Positions 24,091-59,559 of a DNA stretch of 64,000 bases are shown here, one piece after another. The DNA comes from Psammoneis japonica (Eukaryota). A program made the translations under genes and the position numbers. Positions within the stretch are counted from its first letter, which is position 1. Every line of letters begins with the position of its first letter. The notes below the pieces were generated by a model. The model did not search any database and was not told where the DNA came from. It saw only the letters and a program-made list of their open reading frames with translations. The stretch is taken from assembly GCA_008632985.1 (NCBI GenBank), contig QPGO01000111.1:62001-126000 (forward strand). The letters run 5' to 3'.

Positions 24091-24279
24091 AGAGAGCTTC
24101 ACGCCCCTTGGCGTTGCTGAAGAGGTCTGTTTTGCAATTTTGCCTTTGTAGTGCTGATTGCAGCCTTGAAGGCGCTTAGCGATAATGTGTGCATGTATTT
24201 GATGGACGAAACCTTGGACGAACAAATCACGGGGTATATTTTTTAGTGTCCATAATATATTTACTTTTTACTTCGAGAG

Positions 24280-25370: not shown

Positions 25371-25431
25371 AACTATCTACCTCGTTTGCCTAATTTAGCT
25401 ACTTTATTATTTACACAATTGCCACAAAATA

Positions 25432-27944
25432 TCAGTTGAGTCGCTGTCGCTTGCGACTCGCCGGGTCGTCGCTTCCTGACGGAACCGCTCCTAATGCATG
25501 AAGTTCTTCAAAGCACCGTTCGACGTCTCTCAAATTAAATGGCTTGGGGAGAAAGACGCAAGAACCACTTGCTTCCGCCTCTGCTTCAAAATTGTTTGCC
25601 ACGTGGGCCGTGACAAAGGCAACTTTAGGTATCGGGTGGCCACCTTGCCGTGCCACAATCAAGCGGCAAGCATCAATCCCATCCATGACGGGCATTTGCA
25701 TGTCCATCAGTACCACGTCGTATGGCTTGGCGGCTTCTTGATCGACGGCTTTTTGTCCATTGTCCACTACATCAACCTGCGTGACACCCAGTCGCTTGAG
25801 CATTCGAACAATGATCTTTTGGTTAATGGCGTTGTCTTCCGCGACAAGCACTCGAAACTCCGAAAACGGAACTGCTTCGGTAGGCATAGGCGGAGTAGAG
25901 GCTTCCGCGACAGGAGGCAAAGTCGAGCTATCAAACAGAGCAAGCATGGAACGCATCAAGACGGACGGAATCATTTGTGTAAAGCATCGAAAGTGCCCGT
26001 GCTTCTCCTCCACACAATACTTTCGCCCGACTGTAACCAACACGGTTGCAGTCTTGGCCGCCAAGTTCCGATACGGATCAGCCTGAAACAGGTCTTCGTC
26101 GCAAAAGCAAATGTACCGTCCCTTCAAAACAACACCGCTAGCGACAAGGGCATCCATGTCTCGCATGCACTTGAATCCGCGGTGTTTGATATCGTACTGG
26201 GAGCAAATCTCTTGGAAGCGGGCAGCTGAATTGCGATTGGAACCATCATTCGAATCCTTCAACACAGAAAAGATGGTTACATTCTGCATCTTGCGCGTCA
26301 TGTCCGCAACGTCAACAGGAGTACCCGAGAAGGGAAAATCAACGACAAACTTGGACCATTCGCCCTTTTTGCTATCTACCGAGATTGACCCACCAAGCGC
26401 TTTGACAAGTTTTAGTGTAATCGACAATCCGAGGCCTGTGCCACCGTAAATTCTTTCCGTGTCAGCACTGGCTTGATGAAAAGGGAGAAAGATGTTCTTG
26501 AATTCTTCCTTGTTGATTCCGTGGCCATGATCAATCACGATGAATCGAAGCACCTTGTCTGCGTTGTTGACTGGTAATGCAGACTCTTGGGTGCTATCAT
26601 CATCGCACGTAGTGCCGATCGAGTCTGATGAGGAGCGACGAGGGGCTTTGTGAAAGGGGCATCTCGACGGTATATCCCCATTGGACTCATTGTCCAGCCG
26701 CTCCGCGTCATTCATTTTTTCGGGGGCCTTTCCCTTGTCATCATTCCCTAGATTGCATAGTTGTACCTTGAGGTCCATTACACCATTTTCTGGGCTAAAC
26801 TTAAGCGCGTTTCCCAAAAGGTTGTAAAGAATCTGTTGAAGGCGTCGGCTGTCGGTGTTTACGAACTTGGGGAGCAGTGTATCAAACGTTGTACGGAGTT
26901 TCACGTTCTTCTCCACGCCCTTGTTTTCAATGGAATGCACAATGGTATTTATTGTGTCTTGCAGGTTGCTTTCTTTCATGACAATGTCCACGTTCCCTGA
27001 CTCTAACTTCGAGTAGTCCAAAACGTCATTGACCACGGTAAAAGCAGGTCACCACTAGCTACAATCATACCCAGACTTTCTCGCTGTTGGGGGTTCAGCG
27101 GAGTGTCTCGCAGGAGACTTGATAGCCCAATAATACAATTCAACGGAGTCCGAATCTCGTGGCTCATACTTGCAAAGTGCTCTAGCTGCTGAGCTGATGC
27201 TCGAACAACCTTGCGATTTGCGTCTTCCAGGCTCCGATTCGCCTGTTCTAATTCTTGCGTCCGCTCCGTCACCTTGTGCTCGAGCGTGTTGATCAAGCTT
27301 ATGTTTTGCTGGATCTGGAAATAGGCTTGAATGAGGTTGCTGCAAGTGACCGTAAATGGCTCTAAGAAATCTATATCAGCTTGTGAATACCCGCCGGGTT
27401 TGTTGGCTATTCCTACCATGCCGTTCATTTCTCCTCCCTTCTTTGTAAAGAATGGGATTCCCAAAAAGTGGTGAAGCGGTGGATGTCCTTTGGGAACGCC
27501 ACAGGCACGAGTGTCTGTGGAAGGGTTGTTACTTATGACACATGCCTTGGTTGTCATTACCTTTCCAAACAAAGTGTTCATGTTGTAAAATTTGAGACCC
27601 GAGTCGACATTCTCGTCATAAAAGGTTCTCGTTGCTGCATCCCAGGCAATGTTGGTAATCGCGTGTGTCTGTAAGAACATTGTACCATCCTGGTCATGCT
27701 TGACTTCTCCAATGAAGCCATACTCACTGTCCATGAGTTTGAGCAGGCCTTCCAGCAAGCACCCAAACACAACTTTGGGACCCTCGCTTTGCAAATACTG
27801 TCGCTGAACACGTGAAATTATGTCCAGCAAGTTCAACTTTTGAGCATGAGGTCGAGATTCTATCTTGAGTGCGGATAGCGAATCTTTTTCTTTTCTGATT
27901 TTCATAGCCCCATAATTTTCTCCTTGTAATGGGAAAACACCCAT
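25432..27944 (-). CDS. Hybrid sensor histidine kinase (GAF - HisKA - HATPase_c - receiver)
   Basis: GAF-like ([26 protein letters not shown]), H-box [14 protein letters not shown]-box [17 protein letters not shown]-box [34 protein letters not shown]. One 1-bp frameshift at ~27038 joins ORFs 27003-27944 and 25432-27036. Confidence 0.93.
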
Positions 27945-32749: not shown

Positions 32750-32796
32750 TGCTCCTGTCGTTTGTACCTTTCTTGCAAACATCACAGTCCCGGCCT

Positions 32797-33420
32797 TCAA
32801 TGACGACGACGGCAGGCACGGCGGGCCTGTTGGCGGCATCCCAATCCGGTCATGGCTCCTCCAGCAGCTCCGGTGGCTGCTCCCATCTTGGCTCCTTTTC
32901 CGGCGTCGCCGGCAATGGCCCCAGCAACTGCTCCAACGACAGCACCTCTTAGAGCTCCTTGAGCAGCTCCCTTGACAACGTGAGGTTCATTTCGATGTTG
33001 AGGAGGAGGTGCATGTTTCTTGGCAGGAGGGGGCACAGGCTGCGGAGGCGGAGGAGGCGCGGCCTGAGGTGCGGGAGCTTCTTGCTTGGGTGGCTCGCGA
33101 TTTTTGAGCTTTTTGTTTTCTGCCTTGAGTTGAGCATTCTCTTCTTCGAGTTCCTTGACACGTTTTGACATTTCCGAATCTTCACCACCCCCACCACCTT
33201 GAGCGAGACTTTGCACAAAATCAAGTCCCTTTTTTACTCTCTTTGCATCGAGGCCAGACAATCCAAGATCAACTTTCATGTCCTCATCTGACAGCTCTGC
33301 CAAAAGGCTTCCGTCAACCGAATTCTCACGAAAGGCATCTTGCTTCTTACCGAGACCAATGGCAACTAAGAAGAGACAGACTTCATTCACAGTGTAATCT
33401 TTCGGCTCTTTCACTGCCAT
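32797..33420 (-). pseudogene. Mutated paralog of the SAM/glycine-zipper gene (frame still open)
   Basis: Aligns to 38883-39500. Terminal TAT>CAT (Y>H), several CG>TG/CA changes. Lies inside the mutated domain; functionality unknown. Confidence 0.7.
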
Positions 33421-33659
33421 GGCTGGCTTTCTAATTCTTTGCGTCGCGAAGCAGTGCCGCGCGGGGATCGACGGCCAGTCGCGCGTCTCTCTGGGGGGAG
33501 TGAGTGCGAGTGCCGGCAAGTTTGTCCCGCATTCGAAATTCAAAAAATCTGGTCAGATGCATGACGGGTGGGTGACAGGCGAGGTGAGACGATGAGATGT
33601 GATCGATCGCGACGGGAAACTGGAGATTCTCTCGAGTGGCTTGTGCCTCGGATGCACGT

Positions 33660-34720
33660 GAAAAAGAGGAACGGCCATGAGCTTAGAGGCAGCATTTTTC
33701 AGAAAATTGAGGAAGCCATCAACACAAGACAGGAGATCTTTTGCGCCCTCGGAGAGAGATTGCTTTCAAAATGATTTTGGGGACAAGCCAAGTCAGATTG
33801 CACAATGGTTCATGATGACTGCCAACATTCAGCACCTGCACTTCAAGGTGGTGAGTAAAATAAAAATGAAGATGGCAGCATGATTGCAGGGAAAATGTCA
33901 TTTCGATGGGCTGATTCCACGAGCCTCAGGTGTCAAGGAAGTTCGACTCTGCAGTTTGCCGTTTGTGACACTTCGCTCTGTTGTGTGAAAATCAGTGAAC
34001 CAAACAGAATTTGGCCAGACTTTTTAGTTGGTTTCCAGCTCAGCAAGGGACAATTTTGTCTGACATTCATGCCAGCAACTCATCCTGTTCAGATCAACAG
34101 TGAACGAATGGCCTGTGATCATGCCTCAGACACATCATCCTTGGATTTAAGGAAGAATTCCCCTGAGATGGTCGCTGATGTTGCCACATGTGGGTTGGCA
34201 TTGGTCAAAGTGTTCTCCACCAAAAAAACATGTTGATGCTGCCATGTGCGGATTGGCATTGGTCAAAGCGTTTTCAAACCAAAAAAAATGTCATGCTGAC
34301 ATCAAACAGAGCAATGTGATGCTGGAAGGGGCAACAGGAAAAACGGCAGTGACGATTGACCTTGGATCCAGTGTCCTGCACAGCAAGAGCATGACAGAGC
34401 TCTCTTTTGCTTTTGGACTGGAATGTGCTCCCACAGGCTCCCTCAAGCATGACATGACCCATCTGGCAGTTTCTGTTGTGCATGTGATGACTTCGACAAA
34501 TGATCCACTGAGGGAAGAAGTGACGTGAGCTGGGCTCTCACGTGCCATCAGAAAACCGCAAAACATTGCTTCAATTGAAGAAGGTTGCAAAAGCTTGTCT
34601 GACAGAGGGCAAGAACATTGATGAAATGTGGGAAGAGGCCAAAGAGTTCATAAAAAGCGAATGTGAACATGCGGAATTGCTTGTTGACTTGAGCACATGT
34701 GGCCACGGACAACCCACTCT
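33660..34720 (+). pseudogene. Hypermutated paralog of the kinase-like sequence at 39720-40722
   Basis: CHADIKQSN and VTIDLGS retained. Tyr replaced (GYDM>KHDM, EYG>ECE). Stops, frameshifts and a small internal duplication at ~34175-34290. Confidence 0.8.
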
Positions 34721-35905
34721 GTTGCATGATGAATCAAAGCATGGACCAAACTCTTCCTGTGTCTGTCTGCGCAACTCTTTTGCCATCTGTCAGTGGAGTG
34801 GCTGCCTCTTCACTTGTTCTCCTGTGGTTGTTGTCTCCTTCTTGACTCTCTTGCTCTTTGTCCTGCAGTGTTGCTCTTGCATTGTGTTGAGATCATTTTG
34901 GAGCAATCGTTGTCCTTGTCAGTTGTCTCTGCCAGAATGTTGGCATGTGGTGAAAGAGACAAGTCTGCAAGGCAGGGTCCCAACTTCCTTTTTTCTTGTC
35001 TTCAACTGTGCCACAAAGTCTTCAGCCTTGATGTTGCCCATGCCAGCACCTGCGGGAGTTTTGAAAACTCCATTGTCAAGCCTGGTGCATCTTTCATGAT
35101 CAAGATGCACACCAAGCCGGGTCTGAAATGGTGCTGTGGCAAGTGCATCTGACATTGAGTTGGATGCACTGACTCTCTTTGCCTGCAAGGAGACTGTTGT
35201 GTTGACTTGATGTTCTTGCTTTGTAGCTTGCTTCAATTCATGGGCATTTTGACATTGCTGAAATGCTGTGGGATTGCAGAGCCAGCTTGAACACAGGCAC
35301 CAAAAATGCAGATTGATGCTGTTGCTTCACATGCTCAGAGAGATTGCTTCCTTGTTGCTTGCTTTGCATGCACGCATTTGCATCTTGCAAATGACAAAAA
35401 GCACAGCACTGTTTCTACAGAAGAAGTTCTTCTTGTTGAGAGAAGCTGCTGTGTTGTCAACAACAGACCAGACTGTGCTGTCATCAAACTGCTTCATTCC
35501 ATGAGTCACTCTGCTCTCTGCAGACCAGCTCTTGCATCATGAAATCACAATTGTCCAACCTGTCAAAGAAGCTCCAAGTTTTCATCTTCTTCATCTTGGT
35601 GGACTTCTTCTGACTGCAGCTGAGTCATCAAATCTTTTGCATCCACCAAGCATTTTTTACAAAGCACTGGCAACTGACACTGTGCTGTGGACAGAAGATG
35701 CTGAAGTCATGCCACACTGCCGATTGTGAGCGACACACCAAAAATTGAAAGATGCTGCTGAGAGATTTCCTGCAGGGCCCTGCTCTGGCTGGCACCTGAG
35801 AGCAGACCCAACTCAAACTGTCTTGGACAGAAGGTTGTGTGGATGAATGAGAAAGTGCAAAATGTGAGCAGCAAAAATGACCGCCACTGTGATTTTCCTT
35901 GCATG

Positions 35906-38783: not shown

Positions 38784-38882
38784 CTTTGATACTTAGTTTT
38801 AAAAATTCTCTTTCTTTCGTTTTTACATTTTACTCCTACAGTAAAGTTTGTCGCTTTCATACAAATATCATATTTCCGGCCT

Positions 38883-39500
38883 TCAATAACCACGACGGCG
38901 GGCACGGCGGGCCTGTCGGCGGCGTCCCGCTCCCGTCATGGCTCCTCCAGCGGCTCCGGCGGCTGCTCCCATCTTTGCTCCTTGTCCCGCGTCGCCTGCA
39001 ATGGCACCAGCAACCGCCCCAACGACGGCACCTTTTGCAGCTCCTCCCGCAGCTCCCTTGACCACGTGATGCTCATTTCGATGTTGAGGAGGAGGTGCCT
39101 GTTTCTGTGCGGGGGCGGGCGCAGGCTGAGGAGGAGGCGCGGCCTGAGGTGCGGGAGCTTCTTGCTTGGGTGGTTCGGGATTTTTGAGCTTGTTGATTTC
39201 TGCCTTGAGTTGAGCATTCTCTTCTTCGAGTTCCTTGAAACGTTCTGAAATTTCCGAATCTTCACCACCACCACCACCTTGAGCGAGACTTTGCGCAAAA
39301 TCAAGTCCCTTTTTCACTCTCTTGGTATCGAGGCCAGACAATCCAAGATCTACTTTCATATCCTCATCTGACAGCTCTACCAAAAGGCTTCCGTCAACCG
39401 AATTCTCACGAAAGGCATCTTGCTTCTTACCAAGTCCAATGGCAACTAAGAAGAGACAGACTTCGTCCACGGTATAATCTTTTGGCTCTTTCACCACCAT
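38883..39500 (-). CDS. SAM-domain protein with coiled coil, Pro-rich linker and C-terminal glycine zipper
   Basis: YTVDEVCLFLVAIGLGKKQDAFRENSVDGSLLVELSDEDMKVDLGL (SAM) and GAAGGAAKGAVVGAVAGAIAGDAGQGAKMGAAAGAAGGA (glycine zipper). Confidence 0.88.
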   Translation of the reverse strand: MVVKEPKDYTVDEVCLFLVAIGLGKKQDAFRENSVDGSLLVELSDEDMKVDLGLSGLDTKRVKKGLDFAQSLAQGGGGGEDSEISERFKELEEENAQLKAEINKLKNPEPPKQEAPAPQAAPPPQPAPAPAQKQAPPPQHRNEHHVVKGAAGGAAKGAVVGAVAGAIAGDAGQGAKMGAAAGAAGGAMTGAGRRRQARRARRRGY

Positions 39501-39719
39501 GGTTGGCTCTTTCTAAGAATTCTTTGCAAAAACGCGTGGATTATAAATATGGCATCGAGATCTTTCGCCGCGCGCATCAGTCGCGCTCGCGTCGGGGGGA
39601 TGCGTGATGCTCAATGCGTGTGGTGCGTCGTGCGTCATGATGGCTGGGAGGTGATAGACGATGGTGACGGGAAGCTGGAGATTCTCTCGAGTGGTTTAGG
39701 CATCATTGTACTGGTACAC

Positions 39720-40722
39720 ATGAAAAAGAGGAACGGCCATGAGCTTAGAGGCAGTATTTCAGAAAATTGAGGAAGTCATCAAGAGAGATCTTAGATCTTA
39801 CGCTGTCGGAGAAGGATTGCTTTCACAATTTTGGGGACAAGCTAAGTCAGATTGCGCAAGGGTTTATGACGATTGCCAACATTCAGCGCCTTCACTTCAA
39901 GGTGGCGAGTAAAATAAAAACGAAGACGGCAACACGATTGCAGGGATAATATCATTTCGATGGGCTGATTCCAGGAGCCTCAGGTCAAGGAAATTCGACT
40001 CTACAGTTGCCGTTTATGGCACATCGCTCTGTTCTGCGAAAATTAGCGAACCAAGCAGAATTTCGCCTGAAATTTCAGTTGGTGTCTAGCTCAGCGACGG
40101 TCAAGTTTGTCCGACAGTCATGCCAGTAATTGATTCTGTTCAGATCGATAGTGAACGAATGTCGATGATCACGCCCTATTACCCGCTAGACGTATCATCC
40201 TTGGATTTGAGGAATTCCCCTGAGACGGTCACTAATGCTGCCATGTGCGGATTGGTATCGGTCAAAGCGTTTTCAAACCAAAAAATATGTCATGCTGACA
40301 TCAAACAGAGCAATATGATGCTGGAACGGGCAAGAGGAAAAACGGCAGTGACGATTGACCTTGGATCCAGTGTTCCACACGGTGAGAGCATCACGGAGCT
40401 CTCTTTTGCTTTTGGACTGGACTGTGCTCCCACAGGCTCCCTCGGATACGACATGACCTGTCTAGCAGTTTCCATTGTGCATACGACGACTTCGATAAAT
40501 GATCCACTGAGGGAAGAAGTAACGCGAGCTGGGCTCTCACGTGCCATCGGAAAACCGCAAAACGTTGCTTTAAAGGTTGCAAAAGCTTGTCTGACGGAGG
40601 GTAAGAACATTGATGAAGTTTGGGAAGAGGCCAAAGAGTTCATAGAAAGTGAATATGGAAATGCGGAATCGCTTGTTGACTTGGAGTACATATTGCCACG
40701 AACGACCTATTCCGTTGCATGA
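39720..40722 (+). pseudogene. Protein kinase-like sequence; C-lobe open (40120-40722), N-terminal part interrupted
   Basis: Catalytic-loop-like HADIKQSNMML and DFG-equivalent IDLGS. Upstream frames contain stops/frameshifts. Confidence 0.65.
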
Positions 40723-41514
40723 CGAATCAAAGTAGAGGGACAAACTCTTCCCATGTCTCTCTACGCAACTCTTTTGCCATCTATCAGTGGAGTCGCGATC
40801 CCTTCACTGGTGCTCCTGTGTTTGTTGCCTCCGTCTCGACTCTCACGCTCTGCGTTCTACGACTTTGCTCGTGCATCGTGTTGAGATCATTTGGGAGTAA
40901 TCATTGTCCTTACCAATTATCTCTTCTAGAACAACAGCATACGGTGAAAGACACAAGTCTGCGAGGCGTGGTCCCAACTTCTTTTTGTCTTGTCTTCTAC
41001 AATACATAATTCTTCGGCCTTGATACAACCTTTGCCAGCACCTGCTGGAGTTTAAAACTCTATCATCTAGCCTAGTGCGTCCTTCATGATCGAGATGTAC
41101 AATAGCTTGGTCTATGAAATGGCGCTACGGCGAGTGCGTCCGACATTGAGTTGGAGATACCAACTATCTTTGCCTCCAAGGAATGTTGTGTTGACACAAT
41201 GTTGCTTCGATTCATTTCGATTCATGGGCATTTTGACGTTGCTGAAATGCTCTTGGATGATGGAGCCGGTTCGAGCACTGGCGCCAAAACGCGGATTGAC
41301 GCCGTTACTTTAAATGCGCAGAGAGATTGCTGCCTTGTTGCTGACTTTGGGAACACGTATTTGCATCTTACAAAGAACGAAAAGCGCAGCACTGATTCTA
41401 GAGAAGCTCTTATTGTTGAGAGAAACTACTGTTTTGTTAATATCCAGACTGCAGTATCATCGTAGTACTTTTTGGACAAGTCATTCTACTCTCTAGACTA
41501 GTTCTTACATAAAA

Positions 41515-43578
41515 TCACAATTGTCCGACCTGTCGAAGAAGCTCCAAGTTTTCATCTTCTTCATCCTGGTAGACTTCCTCTAGTTGTAGCTGAATCAAAT
41601 CCTTTGCATCCGCCATGCCATTTTTTTTACAAAGCACAGCGTTGCATGCGCTCTTGTACATTTCTCCGCCGTATTCACTAGACACCAAGCTCCAAAACGA
41701 GTACAGCTTCTGGTTTGTTCGTTGCACGTACATGAGAATCATGTTCAAGGCTCTGGCAGCCTCCAACACAATGACCGTCTTTTCTGCAAGGACCGAATGA
41801 TAAAATACTTGAACCAACAAAGCAATCCCCGACTTTACTCGTATGCTACCAACTTGGTCATGATTCCTATTGGTTGAGTTGGTCGTTGATTCTTCCGTGG
41901 CGTTTGCAATCATCTGAGTTCGAAGCAATGCGATTCCCTCGGATGTTTGACAGTACAAAATTGAAAAGAGACTCAGCAACTCCACACACAACGCATCGAG
42001 TCCATAATCGTCAGCCGCGTTTGCGTCACTTAGATAATCCCCGAGAACCCTATAGTCCATAATGTCGAGAATCAATGCCAACAGTCGACGGGAGTAGTTC
42101 CCGTTCCCATATAAATCCAAGAATTCCTTTTGATTTGACAGGACGAGCTTCTTCATTACATGAAAAGCACTCGTGCAAAGGTCCATGGCCTCTTCAAATT
42201 GCGCAGAAGCTAGATCAATTGTGGCGGCACCAGATACGCTTCCCTCGTACAGGGCACGATGAAAGCGGTGTTTCGTCTTCTTGTTTAGGCATGAATGAAA
42301 GAAAGGCTCCAACAAGACGCACATGATACATTCGCCGCAGTAGCTGTTCTTGTCGCAAAAGATGCCTTGCTTTTTCGGAAAGTAGATGTCTTGCCACCAC
42401 CTAATTGAAGAGTCGTTGGATGAAATCAACAAGGATAGAATTAAAAGAGATTCGCGTGCCAACTTCAAGGAGCTATCCTTGTCGCCGACGAGTGCCTGCT
42501 TGACAAAACCAACGAGCCTGGATATCACGTCACGACTTGTGTCCACTCGATACAGAGCATTCGATGTAGCGCTACCAGTCATGGAAGCGTCAGAGCCCAG
42601 CAGTGTTTGCGCGAGTTGTCCCAAACCATTCTCGCTAGACGATATCTCGCCGTCCTTGACGAATCTTATGCGACTGCGCTTTCTTGATGGCCTTGCTCGC
42701 ATAAAGTCATCTCGTCCGGGTTTGCTCCACAGCAAGATCTGATAGAAAACTTTAAGTGCTATGACTTGCTCTGTCTGGTTCTGGAGACACGATTGCGTAC
42801 GCTGAATGATCTCCCAGACAAAATCCAACTCTGAAATGGTATTGCTACACTGTCTGACATGGGACAAAAACTGGTATAAATCTTGCAGTTTACTGTCAGT
42901 AACGTCCCGAGGAAGTATCGTTGAAAGAATATGAGAAGCGAGTCGTTCGACAGTCCCATAATCGCGACGAGTAGCCTGTATTGGAACGTGATGATGAACA
43001 ACGATTGTTCTCGTCTTTGTAACGACACGAGGAGGAGGCGGAGTAGGTGTAGGTGGTAGAGCAGCAGCAGCGTTTGGTGAAACTGAGTGACTAATCAATG
43101 ACGCATTGGGATGATGCTGTTGGTGTTGCTGCTGCTTTTGGTGCTGTTTGAGTCTCGCATGAGCGAGATTAGCTTCTTGCTGAGCGCGACGCAATGCCTC
43201 CTGAGTTTGATGCAATTTCTGTCTTGATTCTTCTTGTACCATTTTGACGGAATGGCTCGTTTCTGCCTGAACCGTCGCCAAGGTAGCTGATAATTCAAAG
43301 ACCTGATCATCTTTTGCGACGAGTTCCAATCGTAATTGTTGAATCTAGAGAGAGAAACAAACATACCTGAGTACACAATGTCGAAAAGCAGCGAAAAAAT
43401 GCCGTTCGTGAAAACATACCTGTCGTTGTAGTTCTTCCTTTTCGCGCTTATCAGCATTATCATAGGAAGGAGGGATCAAGGGAGGATGATTAGAAGCTTG
43501 TTCGTGATAGCCATTTGTTCCGGGCGCGGATGAAGAGCCGTCGGTAGTCCACGCCATTTTGTCTTTGGACTGTTGCAT
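41515..43578 (-). CDS. Uncharacterised ~660-aa protein, N-terminal coiled coil and helical C-terminal region, 2 exons
   Basis: Exon 43420-43578, GT-AG intron 43345-43419 (cag|gtatgt...ctctag|att), in frame with the long ORF ending at 41515. Normal codon composition. Confidence 0.85.
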
Positions 43579-43817: not shown

Positions 43818-44905
43818 CATTTCCATTGTTCTGCCGTCGGCAAATTCCAAAGCCCTCTCTAGAGAGAGAGACTGCGGTGCTCCAAGCTGGTGCTTTTGTC
43901 CTCTCTCTGCTCTCTCGAACATCCAGCTCATTGGCTTCTCTCTTTCTTCTGTGTCCCAGCACAGTTCAAGAGAACAACAACTCAACTTTTTGTTCATCAT
44001 GTGGTGAAATGATGTTGCTTGTGTGGGCTGGTGAAAGGCTGATGCAGAGGCAAAGTGGTTAGAGACAGCTGGCTAAAAAAATGCAAAATGCAAGAAAAAC
44101 GATTGTGGTGCAGCGACACTGGCCACCATGAGACAGCTCTGTTCTTCTCTCATTGTGACCTTGGTCGGCACCTGTCATTGATGTGTGACAAAGGCCGCTG
44201 CATTTAGATCCCACCTGATGGCACCACAAGAGCTTTGAGTGCCATGTGGTGGGTGCTGATTTCTGTGGAAATTGGGACAAAACAATCACATGACAGAGGA
44301 TCCCAACGCAGCAAAGTCGTGCAGCGGCTCTGTGTCATCAAGCATGGAGGAGCCCCTCTCTGTTGGTCATGAAAGTTGCAAATTAATTTGCTCTCAGCAG
44401 CAGTGAGAGTGAGCATTTGGCCCTCTGTCAGCTGTCACCAGACATGTCAAGGCACCTCTGTGCATTTGCTGGAAGAAGTCAACAAACTTTTGCAACATGC
44501 GTTGTCATGTGCGCACCACATGTGCATGTCCACATGTCAAATAAAAGCACATTTCAATCGCACGTCAATCGTGGGTTCGTACGAAGTGCAGATCAGTCAC
44601 ACAGAAGTGATTGGATGTCGAGAATCGCAAATGCGATCGTACGATGATGTTGACATCTCATGTGTCAATGTCAATCGCATCCGGACAATCTGTCGTCACG
44701 ATCATATTCTCCGAAAGGCCTTTTGTCTGCAGGAGCAGCACAAAAGGTTTAGGCCATTGAGAACCCGTTCGGAGAAACCCAAAATGATTGCGCAGAAATG
44801 GTTCTCATAATTTTCACTTTTTGAACTTCATTCTACTTTCGTTTGCACTCGTTCTTCGAGCACAGTGCATTGTGCATACACACCACAGAAGGCAACAAGT
44901 TCAAG

Positions 44906-49241: not shown

Positions 49242-51820
49242 ACAATGCCGTTTAACGACTGACTCCAATGTGCAATTAGGGAGGCGAATGCAACATGCAT
49301 TGTCATGTGCGTGTTGCACATGTGTGTCCACACATTAAATAAAAGCACATTTCAATCGCACGTCAATCGTGGGTTCGCACGAAGTGCAGATCAGTCACAC
49401 AGAAGTGATTGGATGTCGAGAATCGCAAATGCGATCGTACGATGATGTTGACATCTCATGTGTCAATGTCAATCGCATCCGGACAATCTGTCGTCACGAT
49501 CACATTCTCCGAAAGGCCTTTTGTCTGTGGGAGCAGTGCAAAAGGTTTAGGCTGTTGAGAACCCGTTCGGAGAAACCCAAAATGATTGCGCAGAAATAAT
49601 TCTCACAATTTTCACTTTTTGAACTTCATTCTACTTTCGTTTGCACTCGTTCTTCGAGCACAGTGCACTTTCTTGCCGAGTGAGGACCCCACCCACAATT
49701 TTCTGCAAGCTTTTTGAGGACAACTTGGCAGTGCTTGAAACAGCCAAAGTGCCCAAGATGAGGCCCAGAACATGCCACATCAACAATGTCCACCACCACT
49801 TCCACTCAGAGGTTGCCGGTGGACGTTTGCTGATTGAAGTTGTTGGCACCAAGCTCCAACAGGCGGATTTCTTGACAACCAAAATGCCCAACCTGTCAAC
49901 ATTCTTGCACAATCATCTGTCTGTGCAGGGATGGCAACAACTTGGACCTTTCGGCATGAGGGAGTGTGACATCATGTGCACATTTGTGTGTTCAACATGC
50001 CTCAAGCTGCAAGAATGACTTGTTGCTGTGACCACCATCAACAACTGAACCACCTGCAGATCAATCAATGCAAACCCAATCAAGAATTTTGAGGCTCAAA
50101 TCAAGAAGAGAGTTCACTTTGTTCTTGTTCTCACACGAACAAGAACTTCTTGTTTGTGTCAAGTCTTTGACCCCTGTTCATCCATGTTGCCTTCAGTGCA
50201 TCTTTTGGTCACTTCTTGTTTCTTTGCAGCTCTTGTTGGTTGCAGAGCAGCACAATTCATGTTCTCACAATTTGGAAATTGGTGAAAACCAAACACTGCA
50301 TGATTGTCTGTGTCAATGCTGTTTTAAGTCTCTGTGGCCCAAAACTCCACACACCCACAGAAGGATCTCATCAGTGCATCATTTGTGGAGCTTGTCAGCT
50401 GACCCCTTGCTTGACAATTGAGGGAGTGGAGCAACATCCTTTCTGGTTGATGCGTCCACAGAAGACCTCTGAGAGTTTAGTTGCTGACCCAAAGTTTTGG
50501 TGCACCGCCGCGCAGTGCACCGGCAGCAAATCTGCTTGCTCTGTGAGACAAGACAGTTGTCCACAACAAAATTGTCACAGCTCACAATGCACATGCATCA
50601 ACAGCATTTTCTTGCATGACATTGAGTGGTCCAAGTGTTGCCTTTGGGAGGAAATGAAAAATGAACGAGAAATTTGGCACAAACACTCTTGCAAGAACCA
50701 GCATCATCACTCAACTTGCCAAATCTTGCCAACCAACATTTTGCAAAAATTGATCAATTCCACACAAACTGGGGGCACACTGTTCTCATGTGGAGTTTGC
50801 AGCAATGGCATGTGCCCCTGTTTTCCAAGGAAGAGAGAGAACACCACCACAAAAGCCTGTCAGGTGAACAGCATCAATGAGCTGCAGTGTTTGTGTGGCA
50901 CGATTTGTGTTCTGAGTGGCAAAATGGCTTGACAGTGTGCAGAATTGTTGCGGTGCATGGGCCTCTGTGCAAGCAAATCCATTTCCAGGGCATTTCACAT
51001 GCAGCCATTGTGGTGGTTGATGTTCAACAAAGGCCGAAAATGCATCTCATGTGACAAAGAGACAACATGTGAGAATGCCCAACTCCTTCTTCAGATTTGC
51101 CCCTTGGCTCAATTCACACAACCAAATGTTTGTGTGGAGGCCCCTGCTCATGGGTGGATCTGTCCAGCATTCCCAAATGCCCAATCGCGCTGATCAACAG
51201 ACTGTTTTTGCACAAACCGCAGCTGCTGCATGTAAATTTCTTCAACAGTCTCACTTCCGAAGGCGCCCCCCAACACCAACCCATGACACGGGCAGACAGC
51301 AGACCTGTTTTGGCAACTGAGGCAAGTGCGTGGCTGCAGGAAGTGGTCAGCCCCGCACACTTGTGACTTGGAGCTTTCTGCGGTGAAAATTGCGCACCCG
51401 ACCCGACACTGACAAAAACAGTCAGACAACTTCCGCTTGCCACAATGTGAGCTGCGTCTGATCAACAATTTGTGCAGAACAAGGGGCAACAGACAAAAGC
51501 CAGAACAAACATGTTTTGTGTTTGAAGTTGTTCAATGTTTTCAAACATTGTTTGAAGTGTTCAATTTTTTGTTGCAAATGTGTTGCTCTCCTGGGTTTTG
51601 CCCTTTTGGTCATTTCAAACTCATTCTGACAAAGTTTGAACTTGTTCCAACAAGCTTGATTGAAGTTTGGAACAGCATGTGCACAGTTGCACAAAAACAG
51701 CATTTTTTCTCTTGTTGCCCGGTGGGCAATGACAGAATTCTAAGAAGAGTTGAAGGTGCATGTCACTCTCTGGCTGAAACATGTGTGACCATGTACAAAA
51801 AGCCTGTCAGTTTGAAGAAA

Positions 51821-51884
51821 GCGGTAAATGGTTTAGTCGGTAACCGGTTACAAGAGGACCTAGGTTCGATTCCTGGGTATCGCA
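51821..51884 (+). ncRNA. tRNA-like Pol III unit in TRIM 5' LTR (no normal anticodon arm)
   Basis: A-box tggtttagtcgg, T-arm ctagg-ttcgatt-cctgg (B-box), acceptor-like gcggta/tatcgc-a, followed by TTTTT. Confidence 0.7.
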
Positions 51885-52321
51885 ATTTTTCAGGTTGATG
51901 GGTCGGATTTAATCGAGTTGGTCAATCTTGTTTAAATCCTGTCATGGTGCGAGGACCGTTGATGATTTGAACCCAGGTGTGTGTGCTCCTTCAAGATGAC
52001 TCTAAAACTGAGGAGAGGCTGCGGTGAGACAGACCGACGATGCACATAGTGCTCTTATTAGGGATGCCGAGGCCGGAATGGCCGCCCAATTATCAGTTCG
52101 CCGGGGAGGTCATGACATGTGCAGAAAAATGTGGCCCAGGTAGAAGGGGAGCTGTGAGAAGTATCATTGTCCAAAGAAAGGAACGTCAGACAGCTTCGTG
52201 ACGTCAGACAGCTTCGTGACATATGGGGAGTGACAGAATTCTAAGAAGAATTAAAGGTGTATGTCACTCTCTGGCTGAAACATGTGTGACTATGTACAAA
52301 AAGCCTGTCAGTTTGAAGAAA

Positions 52322-52385
52322 GCGGTAAATGGTTTAGTCGGTAACCGGTTACAAGAGGACCTAGGTTCGATTCCTGGGTATCGCA
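52322..52385 (+). ncRNA. tRNA-like Pol III unit in TRIM 3' LTR
   Basis: Identical to 51821-51884. Confidence 0.7.
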
Positions 52386-52446
52386 ATTTTTCAGGTTGAT
52401 GGGTCGGATTTAATCGAGTTGGTCAATCTTGTTTAAATCCTGTCAT

Positions 52447-55400
52447 TGACAGAAATTGAAGGCAAATGGCAAGAATTCAAACAACAACTCCTTGCTGCTG
52501 TCCAAATAGCAGATGAGTCTCCGCTCAGAGACCGTTGCAGGAGCCGAAAGACGTGTAAGTCGGTGTGATCGGGCTACTGTTGTCATTCTTGTGAACCTTG
52601 TGGCTCGAAAGCACACTGCATCGCGCGTGAACGCGCGGAACTGAAGCACACAAAACTGTGCACGGTGACTAAACAGCGCGCGATGCTTCGCGCGCACCTG
52701 AATCCTGCTCAAATCCTGTCACTCCCCAGTTTGCTTGAGGAGCCACAGAAACAGATTCGACTTCGGATGGAATGAAGTTCCAGAACATGAGGGGGCGGAG
52801 AAGGTCCCAGATTTGGGACAACCCCAATGCTTGCTGAGAATGTCAGCAGGGTTGCGGGAGCCTTCGATGAAGTGGAGCTCAAGGCAGCCAGAGGCAATTG
52901 CCTCACGCGCATGGTGGAACGACAGCGCGGCATGTCGCTTGTGCAACTTGGAGTGCGGGATGGTGGCACTGTCTGCAACCGACTTGTTGTCACCGAACAT
53001 GCAGCTGACGTTGCGGATCGGGACGCCAAGGCAGCGCAGGGTGATGCGCAGGTCGACAATCTGCTCAACACAAGTCCTTGCGGCAACAAATTCAGACCCG
53101 CAGGTCGCAGTCTCCACGGTGGCTTGTTTCTCAGAGAACCAATCAGCCGGGAATTTGTTGAGGAAGTGGAGCATTCCCATGACAGAGCGCCCGGTGAGCA
53201 TGCAATGGCACAAGTTTGCATCGACGCAGTGGGTGGTGGCGACGAACTTGCCAAGGGGCGGTGGAGCGTCCTTCGGGATCATCTCTTCTGCTCCACCACA
53301 CACGGAATGCATCCACCCACAGGCCGGAGCAGGGAGATCCGAATGGCCGGGCTCTTCCGTGCGACGCGGAGAGCACCGTGTCGCATCTTGGAGAGGTGCC
53401 CACAGACGCGCTTGGCACGATCCAAGTGGCCTTGACGGGGCGCAGCTCGGAAGCTGGAGAGTGACATGACGGCCGCGGCAATGTCAGCTCGACCAAGGGA
53501 CACTGCCCATTGGAGTGAACCAACAAGAGACTGGAACTTGTGATGCCATCGGGTCCCAGCAGTTCGGAAGTGTCCAGCTCGGGGTGGTCACCCTTCTCTA
53601 GAGGTGACAGGGCGTTGGTGGTGGGTTTCTCCCCAAACAGTCGGGCACAGCTGTCAACCATGCGCTCGATGTGCTTGCGCGGAGACAGGCACAAGGTTCC
53701 GTCGGGTTCCCGGGAAAAGTCGCAACCCAGATGGAACTCAATGGGTCCCGCACCCTTGAGCTTGAACTTGTGCTTTTCCGTGAGGGTGTCGACGAAAGAT
53801 TGAGGGTCCTTCATGGCAATGGCCAGGTCATCCACACAAACGGCAATGTGTTCACAGTGGTCGCCGTTCCTGCGCATCCAAATGTCGGGTTCGGCGCGGC
53901 AGGGGAAGAAGCCTTCAGCTCGCAGGCAGTCGGCGAAGCGCTCGTGCCAGCGGAGACCGGAGCTGCGCAGTCCATGCAGTGCCTTGTGGATGACAAGGAT
54001 GTGTCCTTCGAGTTTGCCGAACTCGGGTCCAGCTGCAATGTAAAGCTTCTCCTTGGTGGTGGCTTCAAGGTGGGCATTGCCAATGTCGGTGGCCCATGTC
54101 TCCAACTCGTTGAGTTCGGCCAGGAAAATCATCAGCCGAAGGCCACGGAGGGAGACTGCTCCGGAGTGGACACTGTCGACAGGTGCGTCCGTGAGGTGCC
54201 CGTCGGCTGCGAGTCGTGCCTTGTGGCGACCGTCGTGTTTCACGTCGCACACCAGGTGCACTCGGATCTTCTTGTGTCCCGCAGGAGGAGTGGAAGACTT
54301 GAAGGGCCCGCAGTCATGGAAGACTTCGCATTCGTCGAGTTGGTCCATCTCGAGATTAGTTGCGTCTCCCCACTTGCGGTTGCCGTTGCGTTCGTCTGGT
54401 GACATGGCGTGTTTGCAGTTCCGGGGAACTTCGCATCCATGCTTGCAGCGAGGTGCAGTGCGGAAGGAGCGAAGCTTGGCTTGGTTGGCCATGCGAAACA
54501 GCTTCTTTTGGCGCCTCGCGATGGTGCGGAACCGCTTCCAGCCATCCGTGTCGAGGAGTCCGATCTCTCGTGCATGGATGGCACAGGTGACGGGGTCGTC
54601 CTTGGCGATGATGGCAAGAGGCTCGGACGTGATCTCCCCACTTTCCCATTCAAGCATGATGTTGTAGCTGGAGCCTTTCCAGGTTGGGTCGTGAGGCTTC
54701 AGAGGTCCTTCGTGTGACACGATGCGTCGAAATTTCCAAACAGTGGTGTCTTCGTCTTCTTGCTCAATGTGATTCATGATGTCATTGCAGGCAAGGACTT
54801 CCTCGCATTCGTCATTGTTGACAGAGCAGACGAACTCAGTGAGCTCGGGATTGCCGTTCACTTTCCATTCGTGGTCTTCGACGGCCTTGACGATGCGAGC
54901 TCTGTGGCGTTGTCCGTCCTCTTGTGGCTGCATGAGGAAGGTGCGTCCAATGATGTCTTGCGGATCGAAAACTGGCATCTTGGGTGTCCTGATCTCCCCA
55001 TCAGGAGAGTCGACGGGGTTGTCGTCATGGCGAGATTTGATGATGGGTTCAGGTGGCTCCCCATCAGGAGGATCAAGACGCAGGTTTCGGACAGCAGGAT
55101 CGGGGGTGGCGGAGCGGACGTTGGACCGGCAGAGGATTTTCTGATTCTCGTCAGATAGAATCTTGAAGGTCATCTGGTGGCCGACGTGCTCAGCAATGCC
55201 AACGAAGCGTCCACGCAACTCACGGGATTCGGACGGCCAATCGGAGTCATCGAGGTGGAAGCACACGGGTTCCCACCAGTGAAAGCGAAGCAATGGGCTG
55301 ATGTCCGGGGTGGAGCCAGTGAGAGTCTCAAGGGGCGTGCGCCAGTGGAGACGTGGGGACGCTGTGTGGTTGAGCATGAAGCACACGCACATGAGCGCCA

Positions 55401-58400
55401 GCAGCCATGCATGGGCGGGCGAACCAAAACGATCCATGACAGTGTTCGCCATGCGCTTCACGGTCTGGCATCGACGCTCGGCAAAGTTTTGGTGTTGCTG
55501 GTGAGGCTCACTTTGCCAGCTAGAGATGAAGAGGGCGCGCAGGAGCCCGAGCACTTTGTTGCTGATCTCAACTTGAGCACGGTTGCTGATGAGTTTGGAT
55601 GGGGCACCACGTTCACGGATCTGATCCTCGAGTGTGTTGACAAACTCTTTGTCCGTCTTGGTGCCACAGACGTCAGTGACGGTAGACTCGGTGCCAACAA
55701 ACAGTTGGGCGCTGGTGCAACCAGAGTCAACGGCCGGGGTGTCGGCACAAACGGTGTCAGTGGCGATGGGCTCGTTGCGGCGGTGCACATTAAGGGCGGG
55801 GTTGGGTGATTTGCAGGCCTTGCGAAGGTGTGTACCGGCGGGCATGCGGGCGCACTGCGTGGTGCAGTCAAAAGTGCGACGGACCGCATCGGCAGGTGGG
55901 AAGCCAAAGCAAGGCCGAAGAGACTCGAAGGGGGGGTCCTTGGGCTGTGCAGTGCGCTCCGGAGGTGGAACATCATCGCCCTGGGGGCCAATCGCATGCA
56001 GATGACACTCGTAGAACACGTCGTCGTTCGGAATGAGGTGATCATCGAGGGCGGACGCGTGATCGGCAGACAAGGAAGCGGACATGATGGTCTCGTTGAC
56101 AACGACACGATGACGGCAGTTGCCGCATTCGTCAAATGGGTTGGCAGTGGGATCGTCCTGCAGGTCAGAGATCGCATCGCACCACTGGTCGTCGTCAGTG
56201 ACAGAGTGATCGAGGACGGAAGGGTCCCATGTGTCATCACCGGTGAGGATGACATGGGGCAGGGTGTCCCATTCGGCGTCAGTGCAAGGTCGCATGGCAA
56301 CATGAGGCAGGCCAGCCTTGATGTCAATGGGGATGACACAGCCATCAGGAGTGGCAGTGCGTTGCAAGCCGTTGGGCACCTTGACAGAGCGATCGTTGAC
56401 ATCCTGTTTGTGCCATTCGAGCTGGCCGCAGGAATGGATGGTCTTGCCCTTGCCCGTGCATGCGTGCTGATGGAGTGTGGCGATGACGGGACCACGCTGG
56501 GTCTCAATGACGGCACCAGCGGTGACAATGGGGATGTCCACCAATTGATGATCGTCAATGCCCTGAACGTCGACTTGGCGAGAGGTGCGTGCAATGACGC
56601 GAACGTCGTCGCCAGCAATGCCGCCGTTGGCCCCACGATCGACTAGAGCACCAGTGCGTGTGGAGCGATGAGCAGAAGCAGAGCAAATGACATTGTGGTT
56701 GTCAACGCGGCGGTAAGTGCGACCGTCAAGTTCCATGTCATCTGCAGAAGCTGGCGGGGTAGAGGAAGCGGCGGATGGCCCCGGTCGACTGGCATTGGGG
56801 GCTTGGTTAGGAGACAACAGACGTTGCAGATCACCGGGTGGCAGTGGCTTGTGCTTGGTGAGGTGCGCCAGGATGGGATTGTCCGAAGTGGCGTCCACAT
56901 GTGGAGCGGAGTCACCAGAGTCAGCAGGAGTCGTGTTGGACAAGTTGACATCACCGTCACTCCCAAGGCGTTGGTCGTGAAGGTTGGCCGTAACAGACTC
57001 ATGGCAGTTGCTGGCTCGCGGGTTGCGGGGAGGTGGACGAGAATGCTCAAGGATGATCGCCTTGGAGGAATCGGGCAACGAATCCCAGAGCCGTTGGTGG
57101 TCGGGAGGGAGACGTCTCCATTGGACACCGGCGAGGCTGGGACCGCGGGTGCAGGCAGCATTGGCTTGAAGGACGTCAACGTCGCTGTCAATGTCGTAGA
57201 ACACATCGTCGGACGGTTCCTCGGAGTGGACGTCGTGTGCGCACATGGCGCGTCGGGGAGCTCGAGGTGTCGTCTTGGGTTGAAACGTGCTGTCGTGCTG
57301 AGCTGCGGCGGAGAGGAGCAAGCCACAGCATTGATCGTATGTGAGGCTCTTGCCACTCTGCGCACGATGCTGATCAGCTTGGTTCTTGACAGCACGGAGT
57401 TCCTCGACAGGGTGCACGGCATTCTCGAGCATGACGCGCTTCTGTCCTTCAGAGAAGTGGTCACTGGCCGGGATGAGTGCCTCGCACTTGCGCAACTGAT
57501 CTTGCCAATGAAGGATGAACCCGTGGGTCGGACCTTTCCAAGTGCCATCACCAAGACGCGCGGTGGTGAGGTGCGTGAGCAGGGTGGAGGACTCGACAGA
57601 TGCGCGGGTGGAGGCAAGCGCGCACTCAGACAAGGAGCGGCAGACGGTCTGTGCATCAGAAGACCCCACATTTTCGCGAATGAGAGCCTTGCCCTTGTCG
57701 GTGAGAAGGATGCGTTCGAAGACGGCGAACATGCACTTTTGCTGTTCAGCAAAGAGCAGTTTGTCTTCGGGGCTGGTCGGTTTGTACGACGAGTCTAGAA
57801 TGCACTCGACGTCTTGGGCACGGGCTTGTGCCACAAGTGAGGTGTGCCAAGTGTGCCACTGCTTGTCGGATTTGAGAGCCGTGAAAGCGGTGGGATCACG
57901 CTTGATGCCTCGCTTGAAGTCCCGCACCGGGTCGCGTGCCTTGGTCGGGTTGGTGACATGTGGAGGTGCAAGGGGTGAGCTGCCGATGGACACAGAAGAC
58001 ATGCAGTCGGGGCTGAGGCGGCAGGCAAGGAACTCGTCATGCGTGAACAAAGAGGAGTCGTTGGCAACGTCAAGACCTTTGTGTGCTTTGACAATGTGCA
58101 GACTGACCAGTGCTGCTAACATGTTCTTACAACCATGGGGCAAAGGGATTGCATTGGTGCCGTTGTCGTGCTCAAGCGAGTCGATTTGGGACGGTGTGAA
58201 CGTGAATGGTTCCTGATGCGAGTCCGTGCCGTCTTGGGCCAAAGCCAAACGAAGAGGACTCCCAGCACCTTGGGCAAGCACGGTTCCAACCACGTGCTCA
58301 AAAACCATCGGTTTGTTGCTGACGAGTGAGAACCATGGCAGACAAAGGTGGTGTCAGGACAATCAATTCTGGTTGGGAAGCGAAGGTGGACTCGAAACTT

Positions 58401-59554
58401 GGGTGAGAACAGACTTGACTTGAAATGGACTTGACTTGAAATCTTGAACTGTCTTAAAATCAGAAGTCGCCGGGCTTTGTCATCCCGTTCGTTGTTGAGT
58501 GCTAAACTTCCTGTCCGGTCCGTAGAGTTGTGCCGGCACGTCCGAACCCGCAGCCAGTGGCGCTTTGGGTTGCTTACGAGCGGAGTAGCGGGTTGTAAAC
58601 CCCTGCAGGCAAGCTGACTAGAGGTGGACAAGACCCCCGAACCGTTCTTGTTTTATGTCGGTTGGATTTCCCGATCAGGCTGGCCAGCTGATGCAGGCGT
58701 CAGGCGCTGTGGACGAACGAACAAACGCGGGAAAGCACCCTCGCCCCAACGCAGGCTGTGATCACGGCCACCTGCTCTCACAGTCGTCCTCGTGGACCTA
58801 GCAGAACTGTAGAGCACCAGCAGTCCGGGGTGGATCAGGTGCAATGGACTCGGTGTGCTTGCAGAGTGGCAGCAAAACCGAAGTCCGAAGAGTGGATAAA
58901 GGTTCTTGGCCGTGAAGACATGCACATGTACACACATGTCTTCAGCGACGAAGATCCTTGAACATGCAGGGTTCTTGACCGTTAACCGAGGAACAGGCAC
59001 ATCAAGGGATGTTGATCAAGGATGGGACTTGGACATGACCGTTGAATGTAAGTCTTCAGCGATCAAAGGCAGCACAATCAATCCAGATATCCAGCGGTAA
59101 GGAGACTTGACGGTGACGTTAACTTCCTGCCGATGCCCTGGTGTTGAATGCGCGTAGACTTGCCGATGTATGTAGAACACACACGGAGGTCCACGTAGAA
59201 TTGAAATAGCGTCGTTGGTAAATCAACGACGACGATGGCGGTTGCTCAATGGGTTGACAATGAGCAAGACTGTTAATCTGACAGAAATTGAAGGCAAATG
59301 GCAAGAATTCAAACAATGACTCCTTGCTGCTGTCCAAATGGCAGATGAGTCTCCGCTCAGAGACCGTTGCAGGAGCCGAAAGACGTGCAAGTCGGCACAA
59401 TCGGGCCACTGTTGTCATTCTTGTGAGCCTTGTGGCTCGAAAGCAAACTACATCGCGCGTGAACGCGCGGAACTAAAGCACACAAAACTGTGCACGGTAA
59501 ACTAAACAGCGCGCGATGCTTCGCGCGCACCTGAATCCTGTTCAAATCCTGTCA
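52447..59554 (-). mobile_element. Full-length Ty1/Copia (CoDi-like) LTR retrotransposon
   Basis: ~275-bp LTRs at 52447-52721 and 59279-59554, PPT actggggag adjacent to 52721, domain order gag-PR-IN-RT-RH, ~1 kb 5' leader. Confidence 0.95.
52719..58336 (-). pseudogene. Copia Gag-Pol polyprotein (hypermutated; frameshifts near 58310, 53540, 53330)
   Basis: LVDRGANGG (PR), EPHQQHQNFAER (IN), DVKHDGRHKARL, DIGNAHLEA, KALHGLRSSG, AVCVDD (RT; YVDD>CVDD), VDANL, ETATCGSEF, NPADILSK (RH). Confidence 0.93.
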
Positions 59555-59559
59555 GGCAA

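Follow-up and report, generated by a model that had tools for sequence, protein, structure and literature searches.

Introduction

Insertions in which two retrotransposons with long terminal repeats (LTRs) lie within one target site duplication (TSD) are known, and in the passages available such structures either share an LTR within one family (PMC1950507, PMC13570524) or keep a copy of the target in the junction (PMC5932611). The insertion analysed here, designated C113, lies in a stretch of 64,000 nucleotides of Psammoneis japonica DNA (contig QPGO01000111.1, positions 62,001 to 126,000 of the forward strand; the whole stretch is hereafter the window), and consists of a terminal-repeat retrotransposon in miniature (TRIM) and a Copia element joined end to end under a single 5-bp TSD. 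Each part belongs to a known kind; the novelty lies in how often this TRIM is found fused to its apparent helper in one integration scar.

Complex LTR insertions (Sabot and Schulman 2007, PMC1950507) likewise hold two elements in one 5-bp TSD after one replication round. As described in the part available, however, those elements are of one family, stand in the same orientation and have three LTRs with a common middle LTR, whereas in our case the two elements are unrelated, there are four LTRs of two kinds, the orientation varies and the joints bear end-joining scars. The marks of such a template switch (three LTRs, a shared middle LTR and identical outer LTRs) are absent from the composites, of which the outer LTRs are unrelated; among the loci studied here, C401 alone resembles a template switch of this type (PMC1950507). 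The LTR-LTR junctions of Drosophila (McGurk and Barbash 2018, PMC5932611) likewise include end-to-end and inverted pairs of LTR elements, but the dimers in the passages covered are of the same family with a copy of the target in the junction, and neither feature is found here, including the target copy by which a double insertion is recognized. For sugar beet TRIMs (PMC13570524), multi-LTR structures under one TSD and chimeras between families are reported; these are attributed, in the text available, to LTR recombination among non-autonomous elements and not to end-joining with an autonomous one.

The TRIM itself is similar to Helenus (TRIMp3; Kojima 2024, PMC10886601), reported from fungi, animals and one plant, in being shorter than 1 kb and in having tRNA-derived A and B boxes in both LTRs, a primer-binding site (PBS), a polypurine tract (PPT) and a 5-bp TSD. 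Fungal members of Helenus were tied to Copia elements priming from the anticodon loop, and half-tRNA priming from this loop is known for Copia-superfamily elements (PMC10886601). Unlike our case, the passages of that paper covered contain no fusion to a helper, and the paper found no complementarity between LTR tRNA and PBS, which here pair at 8-9 contiguous bases; in its main text, as available, the words 'diatom', 'stramenopile' and 'Gly' occur 0 times. The Copia partner resembles, by description rather than by phylogeny of the reverse transcriptase (RT), the CoDi Copia elements of diatoms (Maumus 2009, PMC2806351) in its Ty1/copia RT, its TG...CA LTRs and its terminal inverted repeats of at most 8 nt; in the text available of PMC2806351, TRIM and non-autonomous are mentioned 0 times.

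In a literature search, with most subscription papers and supplements outside its coverage, no TRIM and autonomous element end-joined under one TSD was detected. Blunt or scarred joints of linear DNAs, and single integrations using the ends of two molecules, are known from 2-LTR circle junctions, two-donor concerted integration in vitro and the co-integration of separate T-DNAs; unlike these, the joints described below appear to arise often in the germline, and they link a parasite with its helper. From the likeness of its Copia to CoDi elements, we take the genome to be diatom-like.

Results

Organization of the composite at C113

The components of the composite are as follows (positions in the window; + or − for the strand).

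51725 to 51729: left copy of the shared 5-bp TSD, GGCAA (sequence reading)
51730 to 51944, +: TRIM 5' LTR, 215 bp, with 4 differences from the 3' LTR, 3 of these TA>TG/CA
51821 to 51884, +: tRNA-Gly-like segment in the TRIM 5' LTR, best host match tRNA-Gly(CCC); A box at about 51829-51840, B box at 51863-51873, T5 run at 51886-51890
51945 to 51952, +: core of the TRIM PBS, TGG type, adjoining the LTR, 8 nt in common with subfamily B
51945 to 52230, +: TRIM internal region, 286 bp, with the PPT GGGGAG at its end (52225-52230)
52231 to 52445, +: TRIM 3' LTR, with a second tRNA-like copy at 52322-52385
52446: one-base junction, T, no TSD (sequence reading)
52447 to 52721, −: Copia 3' LTR, 275 bp (LTR pair comparison)
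52722 to 52727, −: Copia PPT GGGGAG (sequence reading)
52722 to 58353, −: Copia gag-pol, main frame 53146-58353, RNase H end in other frames (RVT_2 match)
59260 to 59278, −: Copia PBS, pairing at 18/19 nt with the anticodon arm of host tRNA-Asn(GTT) (L107)
59279 to 59554, −: Copia 5' LTR, 276 bp (LTR pair comparison)
59555 to 59559: right copy of the shared TSD, GGCAA (sequence reading)

The 716-bp TRIM (+, 51730-52445) and the 7,108-bp Copia (−, 52447-59554) meet 3' end to 3' end across the single T, with GGCAA on both outer sides and no TSD at the junction, and TGACAG/CTGTCA termini and the GGGGAG PPT are common to both. This layout and these shared ends, first noticed in a preliminary description of the sequence, were seen again when the positions were re-read. 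A chance match of 5-mers, considered there as a possible refutation, has a probability of 0.0015 for two random 5-mers of the window, and is ruled out by the exact recurrence of shared TSDs at C40 (CTTCT), C6 (TTTCA) and C96/C423 (GAATG). The TRIM-Copia composite under a single TSD is real and recurrent. Read evidence came from the Logan contigs of a single sample that is possibly the source: a short-read assembly contig (51157-51789) runs at flank depth across the left TSD into the TRIM, and the right-hand contig extends just 21 nt into the Copia, the rule for bridging being 31 nt.

Recurrence of the fusion

A search of the assembly with the TRIM gave 34 matches, including 15 loci at least 92% identical, which represent 13 independent events (TRIM-A); C96 and C423 are the halves of one event, and the second C40 match is a duplicate. 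The preliminary description had proposed to look for the fusion at other loci and for solo TRIMs with their own TSDs, and both exist. Six of the 13 events are end-joined to Copia under one TSD with junctions that are not alike, four are solo, two are captured in Copia and one belongs to no settled class.

C113: tail-to-tail, junction T, TSD GGCAA
C40: tail-to-tail, junction AA, TSD CTTCT
C76: TRIM tail to Copia head, junction 0 nt, TSD TTTAC/TTTGC
C96/C423: tail-to-head, junction 0 nt, TSD GAATG
C6: head-to-head, both sides of the junction deleted, TSD TTTCA
C4: head-to-head, 4-nt overlap and deletion, TSD GCATG/GTGTG, Copia rearranged
C75, C71, C246 and C41: solo TRIM with own TSD
C152 and C401: TRIM captured inside Copia
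C51: TRIM event of no settled class

The shared TSD is exact at four of the six end-joined loci and differs just at TA steps at the other two; a TA-step mismatch is also present in the TSD of an ordinary Copia (CAAGA/TGAGA). The outer junctions are precise (6/6) and the inner junctions scarred (T, AA, 0, 0 and two deletions, one with the 4-nt overlap). Three orientations occur, tail-to-tail and tail-to-head being found twice each, and the C96/C423 composite sits in an older Copia (TSD TTCAG) and is broken by other DNA. The partner Copias are 12-31 transversions apart over 4-7 kb and their nearest copies are mostly ordinary Copias, indicating that the composites arose independently; C423in and C6 are the sole partners that are each other's nearest copy.

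Movement of the TRIM on its own is indicated by the exact 5-bp TSDs of solo C75, C71 and C246, the TSD of C41 having one mismatch. In C401, bases 1-80 of the TRIM internal region lie within a Copia in the same orientation; the captured piece stops exactly at the PBS edge, and microhomology is present at the return to Copia. C152 is a TRIM/Copia chimera under one TSD, and at C73 the older subfamily B is present as a chimera with a Copia relative under the single TSD GGTTT.

A TA-rich young element with an open reading frame of more than 1100 aa (L083:1-3592 and L077:517-2442) was also observed, joined to the TRIM by a 7-nt microhomology; judged from its motifs, its product may be transposase-like. 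Three further TRIM ends (C423, the C40 duplicate and C51) are cut by TA-rich DNA.

Control Copia insertions

As controls, the 20 best-scoring and 40 pattern-picked Copias were taken (60 in total), of which 19 and 20, respectively, were scoreable at both ends and 21 unscoreable. All scoreable controls (39/39) carry their own 5-bp TSD, 3 of them past a mutated end and 1 with a TA-type double change, and no TRIM match was found in the 40 pattern-picked ones. A single TSD shared with Copia was thus observed for 6/10 TRIM-A events with both outer ends scoreable, versus 0/39 controls lacking their own TSD (Fisher p=1.5e-5; 4e-4 with exact TSDs alone). An insertion has a chance of about 6e-5 of falling 3 nt or less from a Copia end. 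The fusions were located at outer Copia termini, which are the free ends of the cDNA, in 6/6 cases and in none at the inner LTR boundary of the same sequence (p=0.016). The genome contains at least 407 Copia PPT-LTR junctions (3' ends), and a genome-wide end-to-end pattern, which misses variant ends such as that of C40, gave 13 sites including 3 TRIM-Copia and 0 Copia-Copia; the control pattern gave 10 matches. The other 10 of the 13 sites were dropped: seven are unrelated, two consist of a Copia relative and unrelated sequence, and one is C88, a Copia whose TSD happens to resemble an end.

The TRIM and its predicted primer

The TRIM (716 bp, non-coding) has the structure typical of this class, with two 215-bp LTRs differing at 4 positions, a TGG PBS and the GGGGAG PPT. 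In the tRNA-like segment of the LTR, the GGTTC B box and the YGG of the A box are present, the TRGCY part is unmatched and a proper anticodon arm is lacking. The segment aligns best to tRNA-Gly(CCC) among the recovered host tRNAs, and stays below the thresholds of ARAGORN and Rfam, neither of which gave a tRNA call. With tRNA-derived A and B boxes in the LTR, the TRIM fits the Helenus (TRIMp3) type by structure, on which that group is also defined in the part available of PMC10886601.

A T5 run directly follows the segment in each LTR. RNA polymerase III would yield a 64-nt RNA here (51821-51890 with the T5 run) unless it reads through, and the 3' end of this predicted RNA could pair with the TRIM's own PBS. 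The TRIM PBS forms its best duplexes, of 8-9 contiguous pairs, with host tRNA-Gly(CCC) and the LTR segment of the TRIM itself, the duplex energy of the latter being on a par with that of host tRNA-Gly. Among the matches listed, no host tRNA pairs beyond 8-9 contiguous Watson-Crick bases, for a recovered tRNA set that is incomplete (e.g. without Gly-GCC, Ile and Tyr; 100 of 120 rows listed in one case). No autonomous element with a TRIM-type PBS was found, all 17 matches sitting at TRIM A or B loci. These pairings speak for a priming of the TRIM by its own LTR-encoded tRNA-like RNA, which we nevertheless regard as unlikely.

TRIM subfamily B, about 78% identical, was observed at L131-L133, L015, L019 and L026 (C33, C110, C498, C272 and C502). 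Several of its loci have common flanks and the same TSD GTGTC, indicating one insertion multiplied inside a larger repeat, and C33 is a tandem form with three LTRs.

The Copia partner and the shared ends

The C113 Copia (7,108 bp; LTRs of 275 and 276 bp with 15 substitutions between the pair) shows the RVT_2-type RT, LTRs and 5-bp TSD of Ty1/Copia elements. Its frame matches RVT_2 (PF07727) in Pfam with E=1.9e-21, and its protein has 858 homologues, none bearing a lineage name, the best being 60-71% identical. The coding region is frameshifted and TpA-hypermutated, 131/183 TA sites being lost across the element. The Pfam search gave no integrase domain at E<=0.01; a stretch upstream of the RT may be integrase-like, judged by eye from a motif. 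The complementarity of the PBS suggests that this Copia uses half-tRNA priming from the anticodon arm of tRNA-Asn(GTT).

The ends of the TRIM correspond to those of the Copia in a swapped manner, the TRIM 3' and Copia 5' ends being alike at 19/21 nt and the other pair identical in the first 8 nt. In a third TRIM family, the LTRs are about 490 bp long, the ends are oriented as in the TRIM, and a 60-bp piece is in common with the Copia LTR; the family was found at five loci (L215, L216, L217, L219 and L220; G000 C2:434511, C4:788744, C28:266472, C73:313528 and C197:27303, respectively), three of which have the Copia-type tRNA-Asn PBS, and L215 carries an inverted LTR. In L218 (G000 C53:345856), a Copia relative, the 3' LTR and the piece of pol next to it lie in inverse orientation to the PPT. 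From the swapped ends, the ends and PBS of the third family and the inverted 3' LTR of the Copia relative, the two end types seem interchangeable in this TRIM/Copia lineage.

Loss of TA sites

Non-genic DNA here has lost TA to TG/CA: over much of the window the TA odds are 0.03-0.1, compared with about 0.5 in gene-like parts, and the control LTR pairs show 226 transitions versus 2 transversions. The loss resembles a process described in the available part of bioRxiv 10.64898/2026.01.13.699255. TpA to TpG/CpA hypermutation of repeats after insertion was observed over the window (1-64000) and in Copia copies L155-L214, with 5' LTRs in many cases less affected than 3' LTRs. TRIMs without the 5' LTR have lost 24-57% of their TA sites. 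At C40, the Copia LTR half beside the TRIM has kept 8/8 TA sites, whereas 23 other 3' LTRs kept 1-5, as though this half had been shielded ever since it inserted. A DNA transposon beside the TRIM, taken as an age control, lost 0/75 and 13/75 TA sites, with no clear direction.

Discussion

Probable co-insertion of two cDNAs

We consider it probable that both cDNAs come from one Copia particle, that integrase uses one end of each, and that end-joining links the inner ends. The TRIM would travel with this Copia family as a non-autonomous passenger, with its RNA packaged together with Copia RNA, and each RNA would be reverse-transcribed into a separate cDNA, since the primers differ and no R region is shared. 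Both elements have near-identical integrase attachment ends. Integrase would join one end per cDNA to the target, giving a single 5-bp TSD, and the inner ends would be united by blunt or microhomology-mediated end-joining just before or after strand transfer, either order giving the identical product. The composite would thus be a dead end, made anew each time. The T and AA at the junctions fit the non-templated A addition by RT known from retrovirus and Ty1 work, and the T could also be the initial PBS base, remaining from the tRNA primer. The best sign of contact at the RNA level is C401. Its captured piece stops at the PBS edge, which is also where RNase H would leave the end of a primed RNA, and this is what a template switch by RT onto a co-packaged, already primed RNA should look like. 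The third TRIM family, combining TRIM-type ends with the tRNA-Asn-type PBS of Copia, is also counted in favour of co-insertion. A regular piggyback, in which one particle carries one Copia and one TRIM RNA and one intasome joins both, with about half of the insertions fused, is quite possible, though we stop short of calling it probable.

Co-integration of two joined cDNAs was one of two interpretations in the preliminary description, and with six independent end-joined loci, each with one TSD, it is the best-supported reading; the other, the composite as mobile unit, did not hold (see below). The dependence of the TRIM on this Copia, also proposed there, is supported indirectly by fusion in 8/13 events and by the shared ends, but the PBS types differ. 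This difference, the swapping of the ends and the tRNA-like promoter in the TRIM LTR are additions to that description.

Several observations weigh against co-insertion. The PBS types point to different primers, a tRNA-Asn half in Copia and a 3' end resembling that of tRNA-Gly in the TRIM. At the four clean junctions, the TRIMs lost 5/35, 1/35, 0/35 and 0/18 TA sites (0-14%) and the partner Copias 131/183, 108/184, 108/182 and 82/132 (59-72%); LTR pairs differ at 2-4 of 215 positions in the TRIMs versus 12-17 of about 275 in the partners, and every sampled Copia LTR pair has at least 6 differences. By TA loss, the clean-junction TRIMs look younger than their partner Copias, and under co-insertion those TRIMs whose 5' LTR is intact must have been protected from TpA mutation. 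Such protection could account for the gap, but solo C41 has kept both LTRs and yet lost 20/34 TA sites, and the Copia LTR at C113 is without the shield suggested for C40 (3/8 TA sites). In addition, C96 and C423 were paired across two contigs by inference, the Copia of C4 is internally rearranged, the inner junction of C113 is absent among the Logan read pieces listed, and neither an empty allele nor, among 15 joints listed (7 more exist), a joint bypassing the composite was found.

Alternative origins

Because the TRIMs are less TA-mutated, and C41 and C113 do not fit protection, some weight is left to an addition in two steps, although we regard it as unlikely. Copia would have inserted first, and a TRIM cDNA or 2-LTR circle would later have been added exactly at its terminus, through an integrase cut at the LTR end of the resident element or through recombination within the terminal bases that both share (19/21 nt at one pair of ends, the first 8 nt at the other); the TRIM would then inherit the TSD of Copia, the inner scar would be the circle junction, and the outer junction would be scarless as observed. 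Such an addition does not explain why the fusions are at outer termini in 6/6 cases although the inner LTR boundaries have the same sequence. Moreover, a Copia-specific terminal variant at C40 limits any crossover to at most 3 bp, the Copia LTR beside the TRIM is unmutated there, and at C6 and C4 sequence is missing to either side of the inner junction. To our knowledge, no reaction adds a TRIM cDNA at a resident LTR end, and the literature search gave no report of one.

Free TRIM and Copia cDNAs from separate particles might also meet in the nucleus, be ligated by non-homologous end-joining and integrate as one, without co-packaging. This would give scars of the end-joining type and allow all three orientations, but random pairing among at least 407 Copia and about 13 TRIM copies predicts mostly Copia-Copia joints, and no clean one was found by the end-to-end pattern, with the reservation that inverted or tandem 7-kb repeats may be unstable or collapse in assembly. 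The breakpoint of C401 at the PBS edge also points to contact at the RNA level, and we hold nuclear ligation to be improbable.

Two insertions into one target site, the middle TSD being lost afterwards, are another candidate, since double insertion is documented as giving tandem or inverted dimers of transposable elements (PMC5932611, passages available). Such a history predicts a copy of the target in the junction, whereas the four clean junctions contain 1, 2, 0 and 0 nt between complete termini and a TRIM-TSD-Copia junction was found in 0/13 events, making this route very improbable. An assembly artefact or chance 5-mer match is equally hard to credit: the inner junction is missing from the read pieces listed and the element ends share 6-8 nt, but TSDs match at independent loci and the contig 51157-51789 passes the left TSD into the TRIM at flank depth. 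Replication of the composite itself is the least credible of all, for although the arrangement recurs, with tail-to-tail and tail-to-head twice each, the junctions (T versus AA) and orientations differ from locus to locus, the partners, 12-31 transversions apart and nearest mostly to ordinary copies, are not sisters except C423in and C6, and the unrelated outer LTRs leave no terminal R repeat. As TSDs, junctions and partner Copias all differ, the TRIM-Copia composite is not a mobile unit.

Other features

Elsewhere in the window, a 1.09-kb tandem duplication of 97% identity (24279-26461), a diverged multi-kb duplication (32760-35667 versus 38846-41637) and 380-bp direct repeats that may be another LTR element (44491-44869 versus 49289-49667) were observed. 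Outside the window, L114, L122 and L125 (G000 C310:35097-37228) form a cluster of near-identical tRNA-Ala/Thr-like copies, several being TA-eroded.

Implications

The usual guide to the helper of a TRIM is PBS or LTR sequence that the two have in common. At six loci in this genome, the helper and its parasite are physically joined in one scar although their primers differ and their ends are swapped, a link that PBS matching would miss. The finding also extends TRIMs with tRNA promoters to a diatom-like genome, in which dating by LTR pairs and annotation by TSDs are misleading. If late addition at the Copia terminus were true, an undescribed targeting of resident LTR ends would be involved. If co-packaging is true, the genome records the number of cDNAs made per particle and the pairing by integrase of the ends of two cDNAs in vivo; and if the regular piggyback is true, fused TRIM insertions would record the identity of the helper.

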